This document shows, piece after piece, positions 13,572-50,041 of a stretch of DNA of 64,000 bases. Below the pieces are notes generated by a model, which saw only the letters and a list, made by a program, of their open reading frames with translations, did no database searches and was not told where the DNA came from. The position numbers and the translations under genes were made by a program. Origin of the DNA: Verrucomicrobiota bacterium (GTDB taxonomy: Bacteria > Verrucomicrobiota > Verrucomicrobiia > Verrucomicrobiales > V1-33). How positions within the stretch are numbered: the first letter of the stretch is position 1; every line of letters starts with the position of its first letter. The stretch lies in assembly GCA_040386695.1 (NCBI GenBank), contig JAZKFB010000004.1, positions 65,742-129,741 of the forward strand, written 5' to 3'.

Positions 13572-15857
13572 TCAGGGAATTCTTTTCACCCGGTAGAAGA
13601 CTCTGGAAGTGCCCGCGGGCAGCGTGGTGTCCGTGAAACCGGCGGTGGCCCCGGCGGCGGTGACATTGGGCGTCAGGTCGTCCCATCTGGAAAAATCAGC
13701 CGTGCGCTGGACGGTGTAAACCGCCCCGGCCGTGGAGGGCCATGCTAGGGTGACCTGCCCGGCGGCGGGGCCCCGGACCAGCGAGGAGATCTCAAAGCCG
13801 GCGGAGACGGGCGGCGTGCCCGCGCCGTTGATCATGATGCTTTGGATCTCGCTCCGGCTGAGGGCTTTTTTATAAATGGCGATGTCGTCCAGCTTGCCGT
13901 CAAAAGGAAAACCCAGACCGTTGTCGTCGCCCGCTCCGAGATGGAGATTCAGGGAATAATTCGGAGTGTACTGCGTGGGGGCCGACCGGGAGGTGTCCAC
14001 AGCCGCGCTCTCGCCGTTGACCCACAGCGTTTTGGTGTCCGTGGCGGCATCGTAGGTGATGGCCAGATGCGTCCAGGAGCCGACCACCACGGCCGGACCG
14101 CTGACATCATCCCAGTTCACCACCCCCTGCCCTGTCCAGAACGCCCAGCGCCCGCCATCGGCGTTGTAAAGAATATAACCGTTGGTCTCTCCGCCGCCGC
14201 CGTGGACGCGGCTGGTGACCGGCGAGGCATATCCGCTGGTGCCGTCGGCTTTGGCCCACAGCGTGACCGTGAAGCTGGTGGGATTCAGCAGCGCGTCGAA
14301 AGGCACCTCAATGTGCCCGCCTTCCGTGAAATCCGCGGCGGCGCCGGTCGCGGCATTGGCTCCCGCCTCGGTGAAACTCACCGCGCCCGGAGCCGTGACC
14401 ACGCCGTTGAACCCGTTGCCGCTGGCGTCATCGGCATTCGCGTCCAGCGGCCACCACGCGACCAGCGGCTTGGCCACCGGCACCTCCGCGTGCAGCACCA
14501 CCGTGATATTCGGCGTCAGCGGATCATCGGTGCTGACCAGCATCCGGCTGACAAAGGATCCGTCCTCCAGCAGCGGATCAAACACCACCTCCACCGTCCC
14601 GGTCGCGCCGGGAGCGAGGGTTTCCGGGAATTTGGTGACCGTGAAGGCCGCCATATCCGGACCGGCGGGCGTGACGGCACTGACATTCAGAGGCAGGGCC
14701 GCCCCGTCGTTGCGCAGGGTGAAAGATTTGGTCAGCGTGCTGGTGCCGGCCGGAAGCGTTCCGAACTCCAGCCGCTCCGTCAGGGACACGACGCTGGGAT
14801 CGTGAATGAACCCCGTGACCGTCACCGGCTTCACGGGATTCACCGCTGAATTGCTGGTCAGCTCCAGAATGGTCTCCACCGCTCCGGAAACCCCGGCGGG
14901 ATTGAACGAGATTCTGACCACGCCCGTGCCGCCCGCGGCAATGGGACCCGGCAGGCTGACCACGGAGAAACTGGCCGCATTGCCTCCGCTGAAAGCCGCC
15001 GCCGTGATATTCAGCGCTTTGGTGGCCCCGCCATTGTTCAGGGTGATGTCAAAGGTCTGGACGGCCCCGGTGAGCGTGAGCGGCCAGGGACTTGGCACCA
15101 GCAGATTCGGATCGGTGGAGGTGTCGGGCTTGATGCCGTTGGTCATGACCTCCTGCACCTGCGCCTCCGTCAGGGCATTGTCCCAGAATCCGATATCATC
15201 CATGCGGCCATCCCAGTAAAAGTCCCCGCCCAGATCCGAGCCCGAGCCGAAATGCATGGCCCGCAGCACATTGGCGGAGATGCCGATGACATCATTCAGA
15301 ACCACCACGCCATTGAGCAGCATTTTCCGCGTGGTCGTGTCCGCATCGTAGGTGATGGCCACATGCGTCCAGGCATTCACGGCCACGGGTCCGGCATCAC
15401 GGTTGTTCCACTGTCCCGACGAGCCATTATTGCCCGCCCAGAAGGTCCAGTTGCCGGCGGCGTCATTGTAAATCATGGGACCGTTGGAGGTCGTGCCGTT
15501 GTCCTCGCGGTTGGTGAATGGCGAGCGGTAGGCCCCGCCGCCCGCCGCTGTGGGGAACGCCCAGAAAGCCAGGCTGAAACTGCCGGACCCGTTCTCGGCC
15601 TGGGTGCCGGGATTCAGGTCCGGGGTATAGGGAATGTCGATGTGGCCCGGACCCGGGAAGTCGGCGGAGGAGCCCGTTTTGCCATTGGCTCCGGATTGTC
15701 CGAACGTCACCGTCCCCACCACCGTGCCGTTGTGGCCGTTGCCGGTGGCGTCCAGCGCATTGGCGTCCAGCGGCCAGTGGGCCACCAGTCCGGCGGAGGC
15801 TCCGACTATTGACATCACGGTAAACCAGCAGGAAAACACCAGGAATTTCATAGGCAT
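13572..15857 (-). CDS. secreted protein with two LamG-like domains, Ig-like middle repeats and a C-terminal FYRV module
   Basis: Signal peptide after the ATG at 15857/15851 (MKFLVFSCWFTVMSIVGASAG). There is a duplicated LamG signature (LVAHWPLDANALDATGNGHNG / LVAWWPLDANADDASGNGFNG; WTHVAITYDA / WTHLAITYDA). Start position is uncertain (15917, 15857 or 15851). Confidence 0.8.
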   Translation of the reverse strand: MPMKFLVFSCWFTVMSIVGASAGLVAHWPLDANALDATGNGHNGTVVGTVTFGQSGANGKTGSSADFPGPGHIDIPYTPDLNPGTQAENGSGSFSLAFWAFPTAAGGGAYRSPFTNREDNGTTSNGPMIYNDAAGNWTFWAGNNGSSGQWNNRDAGPVAVNAWTHVAITYDADTTTRKMLLNGVVVLNDVIGISANVLRAMHFGSGSDLGGDFYWDGRMDDIGFWDNALTEAQVQEVMTNGIKPDTSTDPNLLVPSPWPLTLTGAVQTFDITLNNGGATKALNITAAAFSGGNAASFSVVSLPGPIAAGGTGVVRISFNPAGVSGAVETILELTSNSAVNPVKPVTVTGFIHDPSVVSLTERLEFGTLPAGTSTLTKSFTLRNDGAALPLNVSAVTPAGPDMAAFTVTKFPETLAPGATGTVEVVFDPLLEDGSFVSRMLVSTDDPLTPNITVVLHAEVPVAKPLVAWWPLDANADDASGNGFNGVVTAPGAVSFTEAGANAATGAAADFTEGGHIEVPFDALLNPTSFTVTLWAKADGTSGYASPVTSRVHGGGGETNGYILYNADGGRWAFWTGQGVVNWDDVSGPAVVVGSWTHLAITYDAATDTKTLWVNGESAAVDTSRSAPTQYTPNYSLNLHLGAGDDNGLGFPFDGKLDDIAIYKKALSRSEIQSIMINGAGTPPVSAGFEISSLVRGPAAGQVTLAWPSTAGAVYTVQRTADFSRWDDLTPNVTAAGATAGFTDTTLPAGTSRVFYRVKRIP

Positions 15858-16008
15858 GAACGCGCCGCGTCCGGCATGGACGTTGGCGGGCGGCTCCAGC
15901 TTCGCCGCAGAAGCCATGCCTTTCGATTTTAAATCTCCGCAGACGCGTAGATTCCTGATCCTGAGCCTTTTGCGCAGAACGGCGGAGTCCTGTGATCCAC
16001 CGTGTTTG

Positions 16009-17340
16009 TCAGGAAACTTTGATGCGCTGAGCGACGGGAATATACCGGTTCAGCCAGGCCAGGAAAAAGAAAACCCGCAGCCGCCACCGCACCGCGAACG
16101 ACAGCCTGGTGCGTCCCGCCAGCACCGCGTTGATCGCGCAGACCATGCCGAAACGGTTATAGGGCTGGAAGAAGATCTGGGCGAAGTGGTTTTTGTAAAA
16201 GTTCCCGATGAATTCCCAATACTGGGAAATGCGCCGCCGGTTGTCCCTCTCATAACGCTTCATGCCGGAGGTCATGGACTGGCCGGAGGCGAGGGCCTCG
16301 TGCACGGCCTCCGCGCCCTGCTTGCCGCTGGTCATGGCCAGCATCACGCCGCTGGAGAAGACGGGATCGATGAACCCGGAGGCGTCGCCGATACGCACCA
16401 GACGGGGCGCCACCAGCTTTCCGTTGCGGTAGGAAAAATCCGTCAGCACCCGCAGCGGATCTTTGGCGGCGGCCTGGGTGAAGCGGTCGCCGACCACTTG
16501 GGTCGTGCGGACGGCGTCGTGAAAAATTTTGTCAGGATCCTTTCCCAACGCTTGGAATTCCCCCCGGTCCAGCACCAGACCCACACTCGTTTTGTTGGCC
16601 TCCAGGGGAATCATCCAGAACCAGGAGTTCTCGCGGCGCACCACCAGAATGTCCCCGTATTCCTCGCCCTGCGGCATGTCCACGTTTTCGAAATGGCCGA
16701 AGATGGCCATCTTTTTGTGTCCGGGATAAAACTCCCGCAGGGACGCCTGATTGGCCGTCAGATTCGACAGCCCGCTGGCGTCCATGAGAAAGCCGGCGGA
16801 AACCTCGTGCTCCATGCCGTCGGCGGCGCTCCGGTATTTCACGGTCACGCCGTCGGCGCTGATTTTGTGGGAGATCACCAGCGCCTCCTCCCGGACCCCG
16901 GCCCCGCATTCCCGCGAATGCTTCAGCAGGAGATCATCAAATTTCGACCGCTCCACCTGCACCGCCGTCGGGAATTCCGTGAACGAGCCGTCCGAAAAAT
17001 CCAGCCGCGTTTTCTGCGGGCCATTGCCCATGAGAAACTGGGCCCCGCGCTTCACCATGAACCCTGCGGATTCAATCTTCGGCCACACCCCGAGGCTGTC
17101 GAAAATCGCGCGGTTATACGGCAGCAGGGATTCCCCGATGTGAAAACGCGGGAACTTCTCCTTCTCCAGCACCAGCACCCGCCGCCCCGCTTTGGCCAGC
17201 GTGGTGGCCGCCGTGGAGCCGGCCGGGCCTCCTCCGATAATGACGACGTCCCAGGAGGTTTTTTCAGTGTTTTCGGAAGTCGGGGAAGGCATGGGGAGGC
17301 AGAAATTTATCAGGCTGGGCGGCTCGGAATGAGGCTCCAT
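16009..17340 (-). CDS. flavin-dependent halogenase-like FAD oxidoreductase, paralog 1
   Basis: Motifs: VVIIGGGPAGS, FPRFHIGESLLP, VKRG, WFWMIP (WxWxIP), GDASGFIDPVFSSGV. Hydrophobic C-terminal tail. An alternative ATG lies at 17292. Confidence 0.85.
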   Translation of the reverse strand: MEPHSEPPSLINFCLPMPSPTSENTEKTSWDVVIIGGGPAGSTAATTLAKAGRRVLVLEKEKFPRFHIGESLLPYNRAIFDSLGVWPKIESAGFMVKRGAQFLMGNGPQKTRLDFSDGSFTEFPTAVQVERSKFDDLLLKHSRECGAGVREEALVISHKISADGVTVKYRSAADGMEHEVSAGFLMDASGLSNLTANQASLREFYPGHKKMAIFGHFENVDMPQGEEYGDILVVRRENSWFWMIPLEANKTSVGLVLDRGEFQALGKDPDKIFHDAVRTTQVVGDRFTQAAAKDPLRVLTDFSYRNGKLVAPRLVRIGDASGFIDPVFSSGVMLAMTSGKQGAEAVHEALASGQSMTSGMKRYERDNRRRISQYWEFIGNFYKNHFAQIFFQPYNRFGMVCAINAVLAGRTRLSFAVRWRLRVFFFLAWLNRYIPVAQRIKVS

Positions 17341-42856: not shown

Positions 42857-43663
42857 TTAAACGGACTTCACGGCATCAACAAGCGGTTTCACAAACGCCG
42901 CCAGCTCCGCCTGCGCCCTTGGCGTTCCTCCGTGGGTCTGAATGACTTTCACAATGGCGCTGCCCACCACCACACCGTCGGCGGACTGCGCGACCTCCCG
43001 CGCCTGCTCCGGGGTGGAGATGCCGAAACCGACGCAGACGGGAGCGGTGACGCCGCCCGCTTTGATCACCGCGACCTGGCTGCCGATGTTGGTGGCCAGA
43101 GTCGTCTGCGCCCCGGTCACGCCCTCACGGGAGATGTAGTAAATAAAACCCTGCGCGCCCGCCGCCAGCTGATGGATGCGCGCCTCCGGCGTGGTCGGCG
43201 CGATGAGGCAGATGCGCTGGAGACTTTTTCCGCCCAGCAGCTCCTCATTCAGCGGGGCCTCGTCCGGCGGCAGATCCAGGAGCAGCACCCCATCGGCTCC
43301 GGCGGCGGCGGCATCCGTGTGGAATTTCTCGAATCCGTAGGCGTAGACCGGATTCAGATAAGTGAAAAGCACGAGCGGAATCTGCGACACCTCCCGGATG
43401 CGGCGGATCAGTTCCATCACGCCCACCGTGGTCGCCCCGGCTTCCAGCGCCCGCTGCGCCGCCAGCTGATTCACGATTCCGTCCGCCAGCGGATCGGAGA
43501 ACGGCAGCCCCAGCTCAATCACGTCCGCCCCGCAGGCCTCCAGCGTCAGCACATTGGCCAGCGTCTCCTCCATGGACGGGTCCCCGGCGGCGATGTAGGC
43601 GACAAAGGCCCGGCGGCCGGACTGGCGCAGGGCGGCGAAAGTTTGATCGAGACGGGAGGGCAT
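42857..43663 (-). CDS. trpA: tryptophan synthase alpha chain
   Basis: Start trimmed to the ATG at 43663. Motifs are FVAYIAAGDP, GADVIELGLPFSDPLADG and YYISREGVTG...GFGIS. Confidence 0.9.
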   Translation of the reverse strand: MPSRLDQTFAALRQSGRRAFVAYIAAGDPSMEETLANVLTLEACGADVIELGLPFSDPLADGIVNQLAAQRALEAGATTVGVMELIRRIREVSQIPLVLFTYLNPVYAYGFEKFHTDAAAAGADGVLLLDLPPDEAPLNEELLGGKSLQRICLIAPTTPEARIHQLAAGAQGFIYYISREGVTGAQTTLATNIGSQVAVIKAGGVTAPVCVGFGISTPEQAREVAQSADGVVVGSAIVKVIQTHGGTPRAQAELAAFVKPLVDAVKSV

Positions 43664-43869
43664 GGGAAAATCCGCGCGCACGGCGGGCCGGAGACATACC
43701 CCGTCCCCACCGCAGGGCAAGCGCCCGGAACGTCTTCGGCAAACCATTACCGTATGCCATCCGGGCGGCATGAAATTACCCAGGCTTCCTGCCTCTCAAG
43801 CGGAATCCCCCTGATTTGCCGGCTTTGATTCTGACAAAAAGCAGGTTATAAAGGGCAGAAACCCGATTC

Positions 43870-45063
43870 ATGACACCAGAAGAACTGACAGCCCTGATTC
43901 TTGCCGGCGAGAAGGACCACGTGGAACGCACACGGTCCACAACGGACACCAACAAATTCCGCGAAGCAATCTGTGCTTTTTCCAATGACCTGCCCGGACA
44001 CGGGAAAGCGGGATTCTTGCTTATCGGAGTAGCCGATAATGGGGACCCGGTCGGCCTTGAAGCCACGGATGCCCTTCTCAAACAATTCACCAACTACCGC
44101 GATGACGGCCAAATCCTGCCCCAACCCTTAGTTAGTGTAACCCACCAGGCCCATCCACAGGGAGGTGGTGATGTCATCATCGTGGAAGTTCTTCCCCACG
44201 ATCTGCCTCCTGTGCGTTTCAAAGGACGCACCCATATTCGAGTTGGTCCCCGCAAAGGCACCGCCAGCGAATCCGAGGAACGCGTGCTCATGGAGCGCCG
44301 CAGCTCGAATTTCCCGACATTTGATGCCACGCCCTGCCCTGAAGGCGAATTGCGGCGCATGGACACCGAGACCTTCCGGCTGACTTACCGTCGGCAGGCC
44401 ATCGCACCGGAGGTGATTGCCGAAAATCACCGCAGCGTGGAGGAACAGTTCGCCGCACTCCGTTTTTACAATCTTCGGCGGAATTGCCCGACCAATGCCG
44501 GGATGCTCGTTTTTGGTGACGATCCGCTCGATATTTTCCCCGGCGCCAAAGTTCAGTTCGTTCAGTTTGCGGGTTCCGATCTGGCGGACGAGGTCCTCGC
44601 CGATAAAATGTTCACGGGAAATATCATCACGCTTCTCGCTGAAATGGACAGCTTTCTGAAAGGCAGGTTTACGCAAAAGCCTGTGCCTGTTTCCGATCTC
44701 CGGGAGGAGACGGTCTTCGATTTTCCCAGAGAAGCGGTCAGGGAGCTTCTGATGAACGCCATTGTTCACCGCGATTACCAGTCCACCAGCCCCGTGCGTT
44801 TCTATCAATTCAGCGACCGCATTGAAATTCAAAATCCCGGCGGGCTGTACGGCGATGCCTCGCCGGAAAACTTTCCACGGGTTAATTCCTACCGTAATCC
44901 CATCATTGCCGAAGCCATGCATGTTCTCGGCTATGTGAACCGGTTTGGCCGCGGGATCGCCCGCGCCAAACGGGCATTGTCGGAAAACGGCAGCCCGGAC
45001 GCCAGGTTTGATTTTCAAACCAGTCACTTTCTTGCCGTTATCCCTAAACATTCCCTGCGATGA
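43870..45063 (+). CDS. AlbA_2/Schlafen-like DNA-binding domain + HATPase_c_4-like (RecG-C-like) ATP-binding protein
   Basis: 397 aa. The N-terminus has E..HVERTRS...FREAICAFSNDLPGHGKAGFLLIGVADNGDPVG (AlbA_2 pattern). The C-terminus has VRELLMNAIVHRDYQ...IEIQNPGGLY...RNPIIAEAM...VNRFGRGI. Confidence 0.8.
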   Translation: MTPEELTALILAGEKDHVERTRSTTDTNKFREAICAFSNDLPGHGKAGFLLIGVADNGDPVGLEATDALLKQFTNYRDDGQILPQPLVSVTHQAHPQGGGDVIIVEVLPHDLPPVRFKGRTHIRVGPRKGTASESEERVLMERRSSNFPTFDATPCPEGELRRMDTETFRLTYRRQAIAPEVIAENHRSVEEQFAALRFYNLRRNCPTNAGMLVFGDDPLDIFPGAKVQFVQFAGSDLADEVLADKMFTGNIITLLAEMDSFLKGRFTQKPVPVSDLREETVFDFPREAVRELLMNAIVHRDYQSTSPVRFYQFSDRIEIQNPGGLYGDASPENFPRVNSYRNPIIAEAMHVLGYVNRFGRGIARAKRALSENGSPDARFDFQTSHFLAVIPKHSLR

Positions 45064-46067
45064 AAATTCTCTCTTTTTTCAACAATAAAGGGGGAGTCGG
45101 AAAAACCACGCTGGTTTATCACCTGGCGTGGATGTTTGCCGATATGGGCAAACGCGTGCTTGTGGCTGACCTTGATCCTCAGGCCAACCTGACCTCCATG
45201 TTCCTGAATGACCGGGAATTGGAATCTCTATGGGACCCCGACGACGGGAAACATCGGAGTATCATGGCTCCTCTCCGGCCCCTGATTGAAGGGGTTGGCG
45301 ATATCAGCGAAAGTCCCTTTCATCAAATTTCTCCGGAAATCAGACTTATCCCCGGGGATCTTGATCTCTCGAATTTTGAATACAACCTCTCCGACGCGTG
45401 GGGCAAATGTCTGGACCGGCAGCCGTCGGCTTTCCGCATCACCAGCTCGCTTCACCGCATTGTAAACCAAGCTGCTGAGGACTTTAACGCGGATCTGGTA
45501 TTTATTGATGTCGGGCCGAATTTTGGTGCCATCAACCGCGCGGCATTGCTCAGCGCGCACGCCCTTGTGGTGCCCGTGGCTCCGGATCTTTTTTCCCTTC
45601 AGGGGCTGCGTAATCTCGGTCCCACTCTTGCCCGATGGAGACAGGATTGGAAAAAACGACTGGCGGAAAATCCCGTTTATGGATTGCTGCTCCCCGAAGG
45701 ACTGATGAATCCTTTGGGATATGTGGTGATCCAATTCGGAATCCATGACAGCCAGCCGATCAAAGCTTACGATAAATGGGCTCGTCGGATCCCAGCCACT
45801 TTTGCCGAGAAAGTGCTGAACCTGCCTGCAAATCCGTTTCTGGATTCTTCAGACAATCCTCACTGCCTCGGACTTCTGAAACATTATCGAAGTCTCATGC
45901 CTATGGCGATGGAGGCCAGAAAGCCCATTTTTCACCTCAAAGCGGCCGATGGCGCCATCGGCGCCCATTCGGCCAGTGTCAAAAATTGCGAGGAGGATTT
46001 CCGGCGGCTTGCCAACGCGATTCTGAATCAACTGGAGGGCATGCCCTTCCTGCAGGCGTGTTACTGA
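45060..46067 (+). CDS. orphan ParA/MinD-superfamily P-loop ATPase with a C-terminal extension
   Basis: Deviant Walker A FNNKGGVGKTT, then VADLDPQANLT and DLVFIDVGP. The ATG overlaps the upstream stop codon (ATGA at 45060-45063). Confidence 0.85.
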   Translation: MKILSFFNNKGGVGKTTLVYHLAWMFADMGKRVLVADLDPQANLTSMFLNDRELESLWDPDDGKHRSIMAPLRPLIEGVGDISESPFHQISPEIRLIPGDLDLSNFEYNLSDAWGKCLDRQPSAFRITSSLHRIVNQAAEDFNADLVFIDVGPNFGAINRAALLSAHALVVPVAPDLFSLQGLRNLGPTLARWRQDWKKRLAENPVYGLLLPEGLMNPLGYVVIQFGIHDSQPIKAYDKWARRIPATFAEKVLNLPANPFLDSSDNPHCLGLLKHYRSLMPMAMEARKPIFHLKAADGAIGAHSASVKNCEEDFRRLANAILNQLEGMPFLQACY

Positions 46068-46172
46068 CGCATCAGGGCACAGTGGGGATTGCTGTTTAAA
46101 GATCCCAGAACTTGAAACTCGGATTTCCCATCCATCACGAATTTTTTCCTCCACATTTGGAAAACTTCAGCC

Positions 46173-46212
46173 GCCCGGTCTTCGGATTGTTCAATTTGAC
46201 CGAAGACCGGGC
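46173..46212. terminator. hairpin between convergent genes (putative bidirectional terminator)
   Basis: 13-bp perfect stem GCCCGGTCTTCGG / CCGAAGACCGGGC with a 14-nt loop. No strong T-run on either side. Confidence 0.5.
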
Positions 46213-46228
46213 ACTTTAACAAAAACGG

Positions 46229-47305
46229 TCACAGTTTGCCCATGGAGTCGTCGAGGGCGGCGATGAGTTCGCCGATGGTTTCGGCGGTTTCGTCGCCCAT
46301 GTTGGAGAGGCGGAAGGTGGTGCCTTTGATCTTGCCGTAACCGCCGTCGATGGCCATTTGATGGTCCTTTTTCATGATGGACACCAGCTTGGCGGTGTCG
46401 ATCTCCCGGTTGTTTTTGACGCAGGTGAGGGACTTCGAACGGTAGCCTTCCGGTGCGAGGAAATCGAGGCCCTGGCGGCGCACCCAGTCGTGGACGAGAC
46501 CGTTCAGCTCCGCGTGGCGGGCGTAACGGGCTTCCAGGCCTTCGGCGAGGATGTCCTCCATCTTGCTTTCCAGGGCGTAGATCAGCGGGATCACCGGGGT
46601 GCTGGGAGTCATGAGGTTGTCCGCGTTTTTGCGGAACTCCACGAAATCGAAATAATACCCGCGGTCCTTCACGGTGGCGGCTTTGGCCAGAGCGGCGTCG
46701 CTGATGGCGAAAAGCGCCATGCCCGGCGGCATCGCGAGAGCTTTCTGCGTGCCCAGCAGCATCACGTCCACGCCGAGTTCATCGAACGGTGTCGGCACCG
46801 CGCTGAAACTGCTGACGGTGTCGGTGATGAGGCTGACGCCGGGGTATTTTTTGACGACGGCGGCGATTTCCTTCAGCGGATTGAGGACCCCGGTGGAGGT
46901 TTCGTTGTGCACGAGGGTCACGGCGTCAAAACCGCCGGCGGCAAGGCGCTCATCCACCATTTCCGCCGTGATCGGCTGGCCCCACTCGACTTTAAGGGCT
47001 TCGGCCTGTTTGCCGCAGGCCAGGGAAACGTCATACCACTTGTCTGAAAATGCGCCGCAGCAGCAGTTGAGCACTTTCTGTGTCACCAGATTGCGGATGG
47101 AGCCCTCCATGACGCCCCAGGCGGAGGAGGTGGAAAGAAACACGGGCCGCGTGGTGCCGAACACCTGCTGCAGCATTGGCATGATGCGGCCGTAAAGCGC
47201 CTGAAAATCCTTGCTGCGGTGACCCATCATCGGCCGAGTGAGGGCCTGGGTGGTTTTGGGGCTGACTTCGACAGGACCGGGGATGAAGAGCTTCGTGTGT
47301 GACAT
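46229..47305 (-). CDS. class V aminotransferase (serine-pyruvate / alanine-glyoxylate aminotransferase family)
   Basis: The ATG at 47305 gives MSHTKLFIPGPVEVSP.... Also has HNETSTG and the GTQKALAMPPG region (putative PLP Lys). Confidence 0.85.
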   Translation of the reverse strand: MSHTKLFIPGPVEVSPKTTQALTRPMMGHRSKDFQALYGRIMPMLQQVFGTTRPVFLSTSSAWGVMEGSIRNLVTQKVLNCCCGAFSDKWYDVSLACGKQAEALKVEWGQPITAEMVDERLAAGGFDAVTLVHNETSTGVLNPLKEIAAVVKKYPGVSLITDTVSSFSAVPTPFDELGVDVMLLGTQKALAMPPGMALFAISDAALAKAATVKDRGYYFDFVEFRKNADNLMTPSTPVIPLIYALESKMEDILAEGLEARYARHAELNGLVHDWVRRQGLDFLAPEGYRSKSLTCVKNNREIDTAKLVSIMKKDHQMAIDGGYGKIKGTTFRLSNMGDETAETIGELIAALDDSMGKL

Positions 47306-47349: not shown

Positions 47350-49908
47350 TCAACGGGAGTCCGGCCAGATTTTGTATTGCAGCAGGAGTTTGTTCACGAG
47401 ATCGGCAGCGGCACGACCGCGGGGGCCGGGAGCTTTGGCCAACTTTTTCACAATCTCAACGGCTTCCTCATACTTTCCGGCATCCTCCAGCAGCCGCCGG
47501 GCTTTTTCCCCCGCCCGGTGAAACCAGAAATCCTCCGGCGGCGGGTCCGCGGGCAGCGCGGGCGTGACCGGCGGGTCGCTCAGAATGTCATAATAAGCCT
47601 CCAGCGCCTCCGGCAGGCGCTTCAGCGCCTCCAGACACACGCCTTTGCGGAACATCGTCTGGTGCTTCCAGTCGGCGGGCACTTTAGGGTCGCGGATCAG
47701 CTCATCAAAGGACGTCAGCCCCTCCCGGATCTCCTCCGGTTTCCGGCCGGGGGCCGCCAGCAGTTCCCCCCGCACGCTCAGCGCCTGCCAGCGGGTGGTC
47801 CGGTCCACGGCCGGAATGGCGGGCGGCGCGGCCGCCAGAATCTCGTCCACCAGCTGCAGCGCGGCGTCACCTTTCCGCAGCCGCTGATTTAAAAGGGCCT
47901 CCTGCAGGCGGGCCTGCCATTTCAGTTTGCCGTTTCTCTGGAAAACCTCCTCCCACAGGCTGACCGCCTGATCGTAGTTGGCGGGTCCCAGGGCCAGCGC
48001 CGCCTTGCCCGCCCAGAAAACCGCCGCCTCCGCCAGCGGCCCCTGCTGGTCATCACGGGCCAGGGTCTCGAACTGCTGGCGGGCCGCGCTGTACTGCTGC
48101 CGGAGGTAATACATCTCCGCCACTTTCATGCGCAGATCCGAGCGGTCGGCGGAAAGCGGCCAGGTTTCCAGAAATTTCGCCGCTTTGCCCGCCAGCGCCT
48201 CCTGCCCTCCGGAGATTTCGGCCACATAGACATCCAGCAGATCCGCCCGCTCCCGCCGGGCGGGATCGTCCCCCGCCGCCGTCCGCGCCCGGGCCACCCA
48301 GCGCTCCGCCTCCGCCGCGCGCGGGGGATCGGCCCGCAGGTTCAGTTCCGCCAGAGCGATCAGGGCATCAAAATAACGCGCATGATCCGGCAGGGTGGCC
48401 ACAAAGGATTTCAGCCCCTCCATGGCCTCCTCCTGGCCGCGCGAGGCCATGTGCAGCGCGCGCTCCAGCTGAAACTCCGCGCCGGCCATCCGGTATTCCG
48501 CCAGCGGCGAGGCCTCCAGAACCGCCAGCTCCTCCAGCGCCTGCCCGGCGCCGGACTGGAGTTCCGCCACGGCGGCATTGTAGGCGGCGGCGGCGCGCAC
48601 CGACGGATCCGGGGACTGCTGCCCGGCCTGCCGGAAGTTCTGACTGGCCCTGCGGTAACTGCCCGCATCGTAATCCGCCTGCCCCGCCACCCAGTCGGCC
48701 CAGGCCAGCAGGGCCGGGCCCGGGGAAAGATGCCGCAGCTTTTTCAGCACGGAAACCGCCTCCGCCCGCCGTTTCTGAACCGTGTAAAACTGCGCCTGAC
48801 GCAGCAGCGCCTCCGGCAGCAGCGGACTGCCGGTCAGATCCCCGGGAATCGCGGCCCAGGCGGCTTCCGCCGCTTTCAGTTCCCCGGGCGTGTCGGCATC
48901 CGGGGCATCCGCGGCCCCGGCCTCCAGAGCCGCCGCCAGAGCGAATCCGGCGCGCGCCTTCACCTGCGGATCCGGTGAAGCCGCCAGAGTGGCCAGAAAC
49001 GCCTGCGTTTCCTTCGCCGGGGGATTGTTCATGGACTCCAGCTCCCGGAAAGCCGGGGCCAGCACCTCCGGCACCGGCACCGGTGAAAGAACGAGCAGCT
49101 GCTTCAGCACCGGCAGCGCCTCCAGCGAACGCCCCGCCGCCCGCAGCGCCCGCACCCGGCCCAGCATCGCGGCCTGGCGCAGACGCGCCGGCGTCCGGCC
49201 GGAATTCTCCGTGATCAGCGAGAACAGGGACTCCGCGCCCGCCGCGTCCCCCATGGCCAGGGCCACCCGCCCCCGCACATAACGCACCGCCGCCTCCCAC
49301 GGCGCGGGCAGCGAGGCCTGCGCCGGCAGAAGCTCCGAGGCTTCCCGCGCTTTCCCGATGGAGAGCAGCAGCTCCGCGGACCACAGCCGCGCCCGCACCT
49401 GGTGCTCACCGCCGCCGGACGCCGCGGTCAGCGGAGCCAGCAGCCGCAGCGCGCGCGGAACATCGCCGAGGGCGGCCTGCATCCCGGCCTGGCAAAAAAC
49501 CGTCTCCACCGCGTAACGAAAATCCGGAAGCCCCGCCAATGCCTCAAAATCCTTCTCCGCCCCGCGCCATTCCCCCAGTTTGCCCAGGGCCTGGGCATGC
49601 CAGAAACGGGCCTCCGGCAGCGCCTTCAAATCGGGGGATTCCGTCAAAACCCTCGCCTCCGCCGCCTGCCCCGCCCGCACCTGAGCCTCGGCCAGCAGCA
49701 GTTGCACCGCCGTCCGCGCCGGGCCTTTGACTCCCGGGCCGGCCAGCAGACGCGTGAGCTTCACCACCGCCACTTCCGGCAGCCGGTCGCGCAGGGCATT
49801 CACCGACAATTTGTATTCCGGGATTTTGGCCAGTCCGTTGTCCACCGTCTGGGCTCCTGCCAGCGGCAACCAGCCCAGGGTGAAAACGCAGCAGCAGAGC
49901 AACTTCAT
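47350..49908 (-). CDS. secreted TPR-repeat protein
   Basis: The ATG at 49908 gives a signal peptide MKLLCCCVFTLGWLPLAGA. It is followed by about 850 aa of Ala/Leu/Arg-rich helical repeats with TPR-like periodicity. Confidence 0.75.
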   Translation of the reverse strand: MKLLCCCVFTLGWLPLAGAQTVDNGLAKIPEYKLSVNALRDRLPEVAVVKLTRLLAGPGVKGPARTAVQLLLAEAQVRAGQAAEARVLTESPDLKALPEARFWHAQALGKLGEWRGAEKDFEALAGLPDFRYAVETVFCQAGMQAALGDVPRALRLLAPLTAASGGGEHQVRARLWSAELLLSIGKAREASELLPAQASLPAPWEAAVRYVRGRVALAMGDAAGAESLFSLITENSGRTPARLRQAAMLGRVRALRAAGRSLEALPVLKQLLVLSPVPVPEVLAPAFRELESMNNPPAKETQAFLATLAASPDPQVKARAGFALAAALEAGAADAPDADTPGELKAAEAAWAAIPGDLTGSPLLPEALLRQAQFYTVQKRRAEAVSVLKKLRHLSPGPALLAWADWVAGQADYDAGSYRRASQNFRQAGQQSPDPSVRAAAAYNAAVAELQSGAGQALEELAVLEASPLAEYRMAGAEFQLERALHMASRGQEEAMEGLKSFVATLPDHARYFDALIALAELNLRADPPRAAEAERWVARARTAAGDDPARRERADLLDVYVAEISGGQEALAGKAAKFLETWPLSADRSDLRMKVAEMYYLRQQYSAARQQFETLARDDQQGPLAEAAVFWAGKAALALGPANYDQAVSLWEEVFQRNGKLKWQARLQEALLNQRLRKGDAALQLVDEILAAAPPAIPAVDRTTRWQALSVRGELLAAPGRKPEEIREGLTSFDELIRDPKVPADWKHQTMFRKGVCLEALKRLPEALEAYYDILSDPPVTPALPADPPPEDFWFHRAGEKARRLLEDAGKYEEAVEIVKKLAKAPGPRGRAAADLVNKLLLQYKIWPDSR

Positions 49909-50041
49909 TCCGTAAGTAAGACCACGAAACTGCCCGCCCGCGCCCCGCAATGCAACCGCCACCTTCCCCGCAGGCGGACGGCCATTTCCCGGTGCCGCCG
50001 CCATGGCGCGCTGTGGCGGGGGCCGCTTTATTTCTTAAAGC

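Follow-up and report, generated by a model that had tools for sequence, protein, structure and literature searches.

A widespread two-gene cassette joining a Schlafen-GHKL protein to a ParA-like ATPase, seen from a Verrucomicrobiota bacterium, probably a module of biological conflict

What is a two-gene unit, visibly poorer in G+C (GC) than its surroundings, doing among the housekeeping genes of a Verrucomicrobiota bacterium? The question is raised by a stretch of 64,000 nucleotides (nt) of contig JAZKFB010000004.1 (positions 65,742 to 129,741 of the forward strand, assembly GCA_040386695.1), called the window hereafter, in which two open reading frames (ORFs) overlap. From the letters of this DNA, an earlier note had proposed a horizontally acquired module in which an AlbA_2/Schlafen-like protein is coupled to an orphan ParA-like ATPase, possibly for defence. 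We demonstrate here that the two genes form an obligate, co-evolving pair whose distribution fits horizontal mobility, and we propose that this cassette is an effector-plus-regulator conflict module, probably directed against phages, with abortive-infection defence as its most likely role. The pair itself is made of the following features:

43870..45063, plus strand: ORF1, 397 amino acids (aa), with a Schlafen/AlbA_2 RNase-type domain, a linker region and a minimal GHKL ATPase
45060..46067, plus strand: ORF2, 335 aa, a ParA/Soj-like deviant-Walker-A ATPase of the 3PG5 (DIP2308) clade
45060..45063, plus strand: ATGA stop/start overlap, read directly, in which the ORF1 stop meets the ORF2 start

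A public annotation of this contig, made independently, gives these two products as well, and the peptides quoted for both proteins in the earlier note are present in the translations. The overlap, as read from the letters, suggests translational coupling. We followed the pairing from both sides. An ORF1 alignment searched against one genome per species returned 80 loci, 68 of which carry a ParA-like gene directly downstream on the same strand. Conversely, an ORF2 alignment searched against metagenomes returned 80 loci, 76 of them evaluable (the other four leave no contig room upstream), and an ORF1 homologue lies directly upstream in 71. This count rises to at least 73 of the 76 with L109 and L148, in which the upstream homologue is present and its alignment falls short by about 130 nt; L114 has a very divergent upstream protein, in which only HATPase_c_4 is detectable. 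Neighbourhood of the two genes thus persists in genomes that are not related, and its absence, by which the earlier note would have been refuted, was not observed. The stop/start overlap of 4 nt is itself kept in 121 of 132 evaluable pairs (ATGA 103, GTGA 18). Moreover, the pairwise distances of the two proteins correlate over 120 pairs (Pearson 0.71), a value reached by 0 of 500 permutations, and a metagenomic protein of 731 aa (P0367) presents a SLFN-GHKL-ParA fusion with a natural-looking junction. No third conserved gene emerged from the clustering of 1527 neighbouring ORFs at 162 loci. From the adjacency, the overlap, the distance correlation, the fusion and the absence of a third gene, we conclude that the pair is an obligate, co-evolving bicistronic unit. 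Another apparent fusion, P0434 (690 aa), was rejected as an artefact because its middle part is Arg/Ala-rich and frameshift-like.

What do the two genes encode? Two domains are recognised in ORF1:

43909..44259, plus strand: SLFN_AlbA_2 domain (aa 14-130, Pfam E = 1e-13), with E14-x4-E19-x-T21 and a CAFSN box at aa 35-39
44743..45039, plus strand: GHKL (HATPase_c_4) ATP-binding domain, with the N-box E292xxxN296, QNPGG at 321-325 and GRG at 360-362

In Pfam, SLFN_AlbA_2 (PF04326) scores 52 bits against a cut-off of 25, and HATPase_c_4 (PF13749) covers aa 308-390 with E = 1e-16, in agreement with the AlbA_2/Schlafen-like N-terminus and the HATPase_c_4-like C-terminus first read from the letters. 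Pfam detects neither a helix-turn-helix (HTH) nor a helicase domain in ORF1, and no NCBIfam model matches it. Within PADLOC, its only matches are the SLFN-pAgo model (aa 14-328) and pAgo-associated proteins. At the domain level, Foldseek relates the ORF1 model to 3LMM, to SLFN11/12/13/14/5 and to the SAMD9 tRNase domain, and also to the ATP-binding domains of histidine kinases (CA) and PDK. By its predicted domains, ORF1 is a Schlatpase, a name recently coined for the two-domain unit of SLFN and GHKL (10.64898/2026.05.29.728809), or pSlfn-HisKinase protein. Proteins of this kind are abundant: about 60,000 Schlafen-GHKL proteins have been counted (10.64898/2026.05.29.728809), and Schlafen-histidine-kinase fusions are the commonest bacterial Schlafen architecture, with 34% of pSlfns (PMC13056530). 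Of the pSlfns as a whole, 69.6% lie near known defence genes, with 1.9 such genes per pSlfn locus against 0.13-0.19 at housekeeping loci (PMC13056530). ORF1 alone has more than 5000 homologues. In three characterised bacterial systems, Schlafen domains cleave tRNA (PMC13056530, PMC13462974, 10.64898/2026.05.29.728809). In the Schlatpase of the SLFN-pAgo protein RzAgo, the Schlafen nuclease that cleaves tRNA is assembled by oligomerisation, and a mutant of the GHKL Glu loses ATP hydrolysis and keeps ATP binding (10.64898/2026.05.29.728809).

The residues of the Ex4(E/D)xK nuclease motif (defined in 10.64898/2026.05.29.728809 and PMC13056530) were followed through the ORF1 family. E14 and E19 are invariant (125 of 125 members). 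At the position of the motif lysine, a 126-member alignment shows T in the window and 103 other members, K in 20 and S in 2; Thr21 of the window protein is flanked by Arg20 and Arg22. The SAFAN-type Schlafen box reads CAFSN, F37 and N39 being invariant or nearly so. In the GHKL domain, N296, G324 and G362 are invariant and G325 is conserved, and E292 is replaced by Q in the 20 members of clade B, all of which keep the motif Lys and carry Gln instead of the GHKL catalytic Glu. The swap between Thr/Glu (clade A) and Lys/Gln (clade B) is perfectly correlated (20/20, in a subset of loci L095-L162), and both Schlatpase clades share the same ParA partner. The AlbA_2 domain of the earlier note is upheld; the role of sensor given to it there is not, the domain being better read as a nuclease effector in which the motif lysine is replaced.

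The second protein belongs to the deviant-Walker-A ParA/MinD-type ATPases, as had been recognised, and its main features are:

45081..45110, plus strand: deviant Walker A, NNKGGVGKTT, with the signature K10 and the P-loop lysine K15, residues conserved in the ORF2 alignment
45174-45176, plus strand: catalytic Asp D39, matching in alignment the Asp that is replaced in the structures of Soj D44A (2BEK) and HpSoj D41A
45876..45968, plus strand: best-conserved ORF2 segment, aa 273-303, LKHYRSLMPMAMEARKPIF.LK..DGAIGAH, with invariant columns in the ORF2 alignment

Pfam finds AAA_31 (E = 1e-31) and CbiA in ORF2, and PADLOC only a match of its Walker-A stretch (aa 4-39) to PDC-M28B. The profile match to the PDB entry 3PG5 extends over positions 1-325 of 330 (E = 4e-41). 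The AlphaFold2 (AF2) model of ORF2 (pLDDT 78, pTM 0.82) likewise has 3PG5 as its best Foldseek match (TM 0.69-0.76); next in line come Soj, DNA-bound pNOB8 ParA, McdA, the pSM19035 delta protein and ParA2. ORF2 is hence a member of the uncharacterised 3PG5 (DIP2308) clade, which counts 688 cluster representatives at E <= 1e-30. A C-terminal extension of roughly 120 aa had been described for this protein. Foldseek aligns Soj-type ParAs over about 325 model columns, so that the extension was overstated; the extra length is split between an insertion at about aa 50-90 and a C-terminal part that holds the conserved motif. Alignments to Soj by sequence end near aa 200. This motif is partly retained in 3PG5. 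In the monomer model, aa 279-308 have a pLDDT below 50 and are predicted to be disordered, and aa 273-303 make a candidate interface. We also considered an ancient pair in Corynebacterium diphtheriae, since 3PG5 and 3LMM, the best PDB matches of ORF2 and ORF1 respectively, carry the neighbouring locus tags DIP2308 and DIP2311. It was rejected: no Schlatpase lies within 7 kb, and the neighbours of the C. diphtheriae ParA-like gene are FecCD/ABC genes, VanZ and GH25.

Could ORF2 then simply be a positioning ATPase, which from the nucleoid distributes ORF1 oligomers for a housekeeping use or for the partition of a DNA element? The intact deviant Walker A and catalytic Asp speak for it, as do the closeness of the fold to Soj, pNOB8 ParA and McdA once 3PG5 is set apart and the cognate partner gene that is always adjacent. 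We nevertheless consider it improbable. ORF2 falls far below the NCBIfam cut-offs for ParA_partition (67 against 180 bits), RepA (75 against 348), SopA (24 against 725) and MinD (23 against 213), and far under every curated partition, MinD or BcsQ threshold. Neither ParB nor parS-like repeats nor a plasmid or origin context are seen at the locus, as the earlier note had remarked. No recurrent parB or replication partner, which the earlier note would have taken as the sign of a partition remnant, appeared in the neighbour clustering or at the annotated loci, where no parB-specific search was made, and no repeat arrays occur in 43000-47000. Moreover, the gene order places the partner first and the ParA second, and both the partners of the clade (NADase and RNase toxin domains) and the sites inside defence operons described below point elsewhere. 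ORF2 thus has the catalytic core of a ParA, yet stands outside the partition ATPases by its family scores and by its lack of ParB/parS.

A clue to what ORF2 may do comes from the relatives of ORF1 that lack it. ORF1 homologues without a ParA-like neighbour are mostly from Bacteroidota (48-50% identity), and the three that we scanned (L065, L068 and L077; 473-497 aa) end in a C-terminal HTH_24 domain (E from 3e-6 to 4e-13), whereas the ParA-linked ORF1 proteins stop right after the GHKL domain. The winged HTH (wHTH) and the ParA-like gene are thus alternatives, which suggests that ORF2 provides, instead of the wHTH, a regulated and ATP-dependent role linked to DNA or the nucleoid. Two further ORF1 homologues (51% identity) occur on one Vicinamibacterales chromosome, OZ220718 (L059 near 6.35 Mb and L062 near position 600), and a ParA-like gene was not detected downstream of either.

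How did the pair come to lie where it does? The loci found with ORF1 span Verrucomicrobiota, Planctomycetota, Acidobacteriota, Bacteroidota and Burkholderiales, as well as Gammaproteobacteria, WOR-3, Latescibacterota, Binatia and Thermodesulfobacteriota. In the window, the GC content of the pair is 0.545 against 0.648 over 4 kb on each side (0.51-0.58 in 500-nt windows over 43750-46250, against 0.61-0.67 in the flanks), and a hand count gives the same 23 G+C in the 60 nt at 45061-45120 as reported before; the lower-GC island is thus real. A deficit is general: at 85 of 101 loci the pair is poorer in GC than the DNA around it (median -3.4 points), and its GC still tracks that of the host (r 0.80). 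Even at 72-82% identity, relatives have unrelated surroundings. In Luteolibacter yonseiensis, genes for an AraC-type regulator and a MOSC-domain protein enclose the cassette; in Phragmitibacter flavus, it has a Queuosine_synth-family gene on one side and a TerB-like gene on the other; in an uncultured relative, it adjoins MauE and rhodanese genes. Across phyla, copies in a Planctomycetaceae genome keep 68-69% identity. The GC deficit, the differing neighbours at 72-82% identity and the roughly 68% identity between phyla bear out the horizontal acquisition that had been proposed, and the cassette fits a horizontally mobile element. No mobility genes were seen next to the pair, and no integrase among its neighbours in the window. 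Close homologues are absent from 72,556 plasmid records, in which all matches are below 33% identity, and the phage record collection holds only homologues below 33% identity. The surroundings of the L. yonseiensis cassette (L001) also contain further conflict genes, namely a GmrSD_N gene overlapping a HEPN (MAE_28990 / RiboL-PSP) gene about 4 kb downstream (14747-16533), and a ParE toxin gene about 7 kb upstream.

This distribution bears on another explanation, that of an ordinary regulatory pair with no conflict function. The databases label these proteins 'transcriptional regulator', 'ATP-dependent DNA helicase RecG' or 'chromosome partitioning protein', the sequences are highly conserved, and the neighbours in the window are housekeeping genes, all of which would suit such a pair. 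However, the labels are automatic carry-overs from Pfam family titles, and ORF1 has none of the HTH or helicase domains that they imply. The patchy spread across phyla, the GC deficit and the variable context argue against it too, as does the embedding of the pair in BREX and Hma operons, and we regard this reading as very improbable.

Is the cassette linked to defence? In seven loci (from WOR-3, Verrucomicrobiota, Binatia, Planctomycetota and metagenomes), a full-length HmaA helicase lies directly upstream of it, and the HmaB methylase lies downstream wherever the sequence reaches. The order HmaA-[P1-P2]-HmaB was scanned directly in L047 and L080; in L066, L075, L104, L116 and L158, the HmaA directly upstream comes from a container scan or from clustering. 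In L075 (8001-10655, a Binatia metagenome-assembled genome), the Schlatpase gene stands alone between hmaA and hmaB, the ParA-like gene being absent. One IMG/VR contig (L173) carries the pair inside a type 1 BREX operon, in the order BrxC-PglX-[P1-P2]-PglZ-BrxL. Such positions are known to house defence genes: 62.7% of Hma systems have embedded genes, and 7 of 9 embedded candidates that were assayed defended (10.1101/2024.01.29.577857). In addition, BREX and BREX-related loci of at least 1017 taxa use Schlafen-minimal-histidine-kinase-wHTH proteins as auxiliary effectors (PMC12839542).

The other partners of the 3PG5-type clade lead in the same direction. For relatives of DIP2308 at 40-44% identity, a SIR2_2 gene lies directly downstream in the 4 of 4 cases examined, and the two genes, often overlapping, were met in five distinct places (L168, L169, L170, L171/L172 and L175):

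L168 7001-8892; L169 925-2813; L170 237-2110; L171 131-2031; L175 7388-9314: ParA-like + SIR2_2 module

The two SIR2 proteins that were scanned (L169 and L170) match the ThsA, LmuA and Dsr models, and PADLOC-DB v2 does not cover the module as a system. On the viral contig L175, the ParA-like gene and its overlapping SIR2_2 gene lie just downstream of a P2-type replication gene A, at the position of the old/tin hotspot in phage P2. In P22-like phages (Salmonella phage ST160, L164, 3515-5068; and SE1), a DUF3024 gene is followed by a full-length ParA-like homologue, in moron position between the c2 repressor gene and gp24. This is the sieB/bstA position. The DUF3024 protein of ST160 matches the PADLOC candidate PDC-S43 (E = 2e-41). 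A metagenomic representative of 545 aa (P0438) fuses a ParA-like domain, whose Walker A is degenerate and without lysines, to a C-terminal RES domain; RES is a family of NAD-degrading toxins. Another protein, P0393 (595 aa), joins a ParA-like domain to an unannotated tail of 270 aa. In the Pf1 prophage record AY324828 (L165, 4073-5026), an ORF2 homologue of 317 aa stands at the end of the prophage, next to the att site; it bears the label 'putative regulatory protein', and judging by the Pfam alignment its P-loop region, at the N-terminus, seems truncated. Finally, the Vibrio campbellii plasmid NZ_OX411214 (L163, 4184-6002) carries a full-length ParA-like homologue (33% identity) without a Schlatpase. 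A small serine resolvase immediately precedes it, and the 'mobile mystery proteins' A and B as well as a type I restriction-modification system are close by; these surroundings look like a defence islet.

The defence association of the cassette thus comes from its embedding in Hma and BREX operons and from the partners of the ParA-like clade. A tentative extension follows. The 3PG5-type ATPases could be an unrecognised family of defence regulators or sensors, ATP-dimerising switches, probably linked to DNA or the nucleoid, that gate interchangeable toxic effectors; the Schlatpase and ParA cassette would be their most widespread member and a new anti-phage class. The effectors may be a Schlafen-GHKL RNase here and elsewhere SIR2_2 and RES NADases, possibly also HEPN and DUF3024. 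We hold this broader proposal to be possible, and somewhat doubtful as it stands.

For the cassette itself, we propose the following mechanism. By analogy with SLFN-pAgo, ORF1 would be the effector: its GHKL domain would bind ATP, which would drive oligomerisation and yield an active Schlafen nuclease, and the predicted RNase would cut tRNA and so arrest translation. ORF2 would bind ORF1 physically and gate the effector through its own ATP-dependent dimer cycle. It would act probably at the DNA or the nucleoid, in place of the HTH that the sister proteins have, and would keep the nuclease held or positioned in inactive form until an infection cue, the presumed trigger, alters the ATP or DNA state of ORF2; the expected phage phenotype is abortive infection. 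In the DNA-tethering detail of this scheme, we have much lower confidence than in the conflict module as such.

The main rival is a selfish toxin-antitoxin or addiction module without a dedicated anti-phage role, in which ORF1 would be an RNase toxin and ORF2 an antitoxin that neutralises it either by phosphorylation or through a conformational change that depends on nucleotide. The same logic has been proposed for ParA/Soj and HEPN dyads, predicted in 2013 to be toxin-antitoxin pairs with the ATPase as antitoxin (PMC3710099). The tight two-gene unit with its overlap, the fact that the pair stands alone among housekeeping genes in most loci and the pairing of the ParA-like clade with the classic toxin domains RES and SIR2 would all suit it. 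Against these stand the embedding of the pair inside BREX and Hma operons, the sister modules at prophage defence hotspots and the rarity of the cassette on plasmids. We judge a purely selfish module unlikely, and, since many modules of this type are abortive-infection systems, it overlaps in part with the anti-phage role that we favour.

Several observations weigh against an anti-phage cassette. In most loci, the window included, the neighbours are housekeeping genes. The 120 nearest-neighbour proteins that we scanned belong mostly to diverse housekeeping families, with few restriction-modification or Hma matches. The exact pair occurs on only 2 of the 2.9 million viral contigs of IMG/VR, and the conservation of both proteins is higher than usual among defence genes (mean column identity 78-81%). 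In the window clade, the canonical lysine of Ex4(E/D)xK is a Thr, so that nuclease activity is not assured. Two Slfn-HisKinase proteins assayed in E. coli gave no defence (PMC13056530). The sole credible fusion, P0367, is one metagenomic sequence. The AF2 model of ORF1 (pLDDT 61, aa 119-225 unresolved), built on a shallow alignment of 22 sequences at 69% identity or more, is usable for domain-level Foldseek only. Lastly, no model of PADLOC-DB v2.0.0 covers the pair or its relatives. In the literature searched on Schlafen, BREX, Hma-embedded and serine-recombinase systems, the ParA partner is not mentioned. The pair is thus apparently without a name in this literature or in PADLOC-DB v2, just as the earlier note, which recognised no named system, had it. 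The link to defence drawn there is supported by the Hma and BREX embedding and by the partners of the ParA clade; most loci, the window included, lie outside defence islands.

What remains is the immediate setting of the pair, to which two non-coding features belong:

43772..43869, plus strand: intergenic stretch that separates ORF1 from the divergent trpA upstream, putative promoter region
46173..46212, no strand assigned: hairpin with a perfect 13-bp stem and a 14-nt loop, between the convergent ORF2 and aminotransferase genes

Domain scans of the neighbours place the pair, as described before, between trpA, dapF and dapA (upstream, minus strand) and a class-V aminotransferase gene (Aminotran_5), which is followed downstream by a tetratricopeptide-repeat (TPR) protein gene and MacB/FtsX genes. 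The window pair therefore does not lie between Hma or BREX core genes, its neighbours being trpA and Aminotran_5, and no BREX, Hma or restriction-modification system occurs near it in the window. In the upstream region, a promoter-like TTGATT (43825-43830) and TATAAA (43847-43852), separated by a 16-nt spacer, can be made out by eye; the consensus scan does not call them, and the promoter scan gives one internal promoter-like site, at chance level. The arms of the hairpin (46173-46185 and 46200-46212) are 100% complementary, with a folding free energy of -30 kcal/mol and a z of -4.3 against shuffled sequences. The stem that was said to close the pair is thus confirmed as perfect over 13 bp; its role as a terminator is not, as it has no U tract and the intrinsic-terminator scan makes no call. 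The convergent aminotransferase gene has its stop 17 nt away, and the hairpin could serve either gene. No tRNA genes were found at the locus, 43000-47000 contains no Rfam match at E <= 0.1, and in the same interval only short two-copy matches, with no meaningful flanking direct or inverted repeats, were seen. The TPR gene (884 aa, 47350-50004, minus strand) reaches a GC of 0.72-0.74 around 48250-49750, the window average being 0.63, and L. yonseiensis has a similar TPR gene of 859 aa in the vicinity of its cassette (L001, 3111-5690).

Why should this cassette matter? Schlafen-GHKL proteins are the largest bacterial Schlafen class, and no stand-alone member has a demonstrated function or trigger. 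A compact and very widespread cassette of 2.2 kb with an obligate partner makes Schlafen-GHKL regulation genetically testable, and the naturally occurring Thr/Lys and Glu/Gln exchanges between the Schlatpase clades provide variants on which the mechanism can be probed. If the broader proposal on the 3PG5-type ATPases is true, it would give a first function to the abundant stand-alone Schlafen-histidine-kinase proteins and possibly link the state of the nucleoid or DNA to abortive infection. ParA/MinD-type ATPases have so far been known for partition and positioning, and here one clade of them recurs with several toxic effector domains. If this clade gates several effectors, the ParA/MinD type would join the immune-switch ATPases (STAND, ABC, AAA+ and GHKL).

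How, then, does the cassette compare with known systems? With the Schlatpase or pSlfn-HisKinase proteins, of which the N-terminal module of RzAgo is the example, ORF1 shares the succession of PF04326 and PF13749, the acidic residues of the nuclease motif, a SAFAN-like box and the Bergerat residues that bind ATP. It differs in having neither an Argonaute core nor an HTH, in its motif Lys replaced by Thr and in its obligate, separate ParA-like partner, of which 10.64898/2026.05.29.728809 and PMC13056530 make no mention. The Schlafen-minimal-histidine-kinase-wHTH auxiliary effectors of BREX and Hma loci (PMC12839542; clusters 1, 2 and 7 of PMC13462974) belong to the same protein family as ORF1, and relatives of the cassette are likewise embedded in BREX and Hma operons; in contrast, ORF1 lacks the wHTH, a ParA-like gene is present instead, and the window pair has no BREX or Hma nearby.

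On the side of the ATPase, the dyad of ParA/Soj with the MAE_18760 HEPN family (PMC3710099) also couples a ParA/Soj-type ATPase gene to an RNase-type toxin gene, and members of this HEPN family at times occur as fusions with a Schlafen domain (PMC3710099). The proposed effector here is Schlafen plus GHKL, and the dyad itself is a prediction only. DIP2308 of C. diphtheriae (3PG5), a structural-genomics target, is the nearest solved structure to ORF2 and resembles it over the full length, the C-terminal part included; however, the identity is about 26-28%, and the DIP2308 gene stands alone. The ParABS and orphan ParA systems (Soj/Spo0J, McdAB and pNOB8 ParA) resemble ORF2 in their overall fold, in the deviant Walker A and in the catalytic Asp, whereas the pair has no ParB/parS and sub-cut-off scores, ORF2 has an extra insertion and a C-terminal motif, and its partner is a predicted nuclease-ATPase.

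Finally, RorSlfn5 (Ig-like sensor), EcoSlfn7 (DUF262) and Cash (Csx15, cA4-activated) also combine a Schlafen RNase with a regulatory module and are activated via oligomerisation. Their sensors differ, are fused rather than separate, and in no case are a ParA-type ATPase. In the cited papers, tRNA cleavage together with ATP-driven oligomerisation is known only for RzAgo, Cash and RorSlfn5. What is new in the cassette would be a Schlafen-based conflict module with a separate and new regulator, and equally a new effector for the predicted dyads of ParA/Soj with a toxin.

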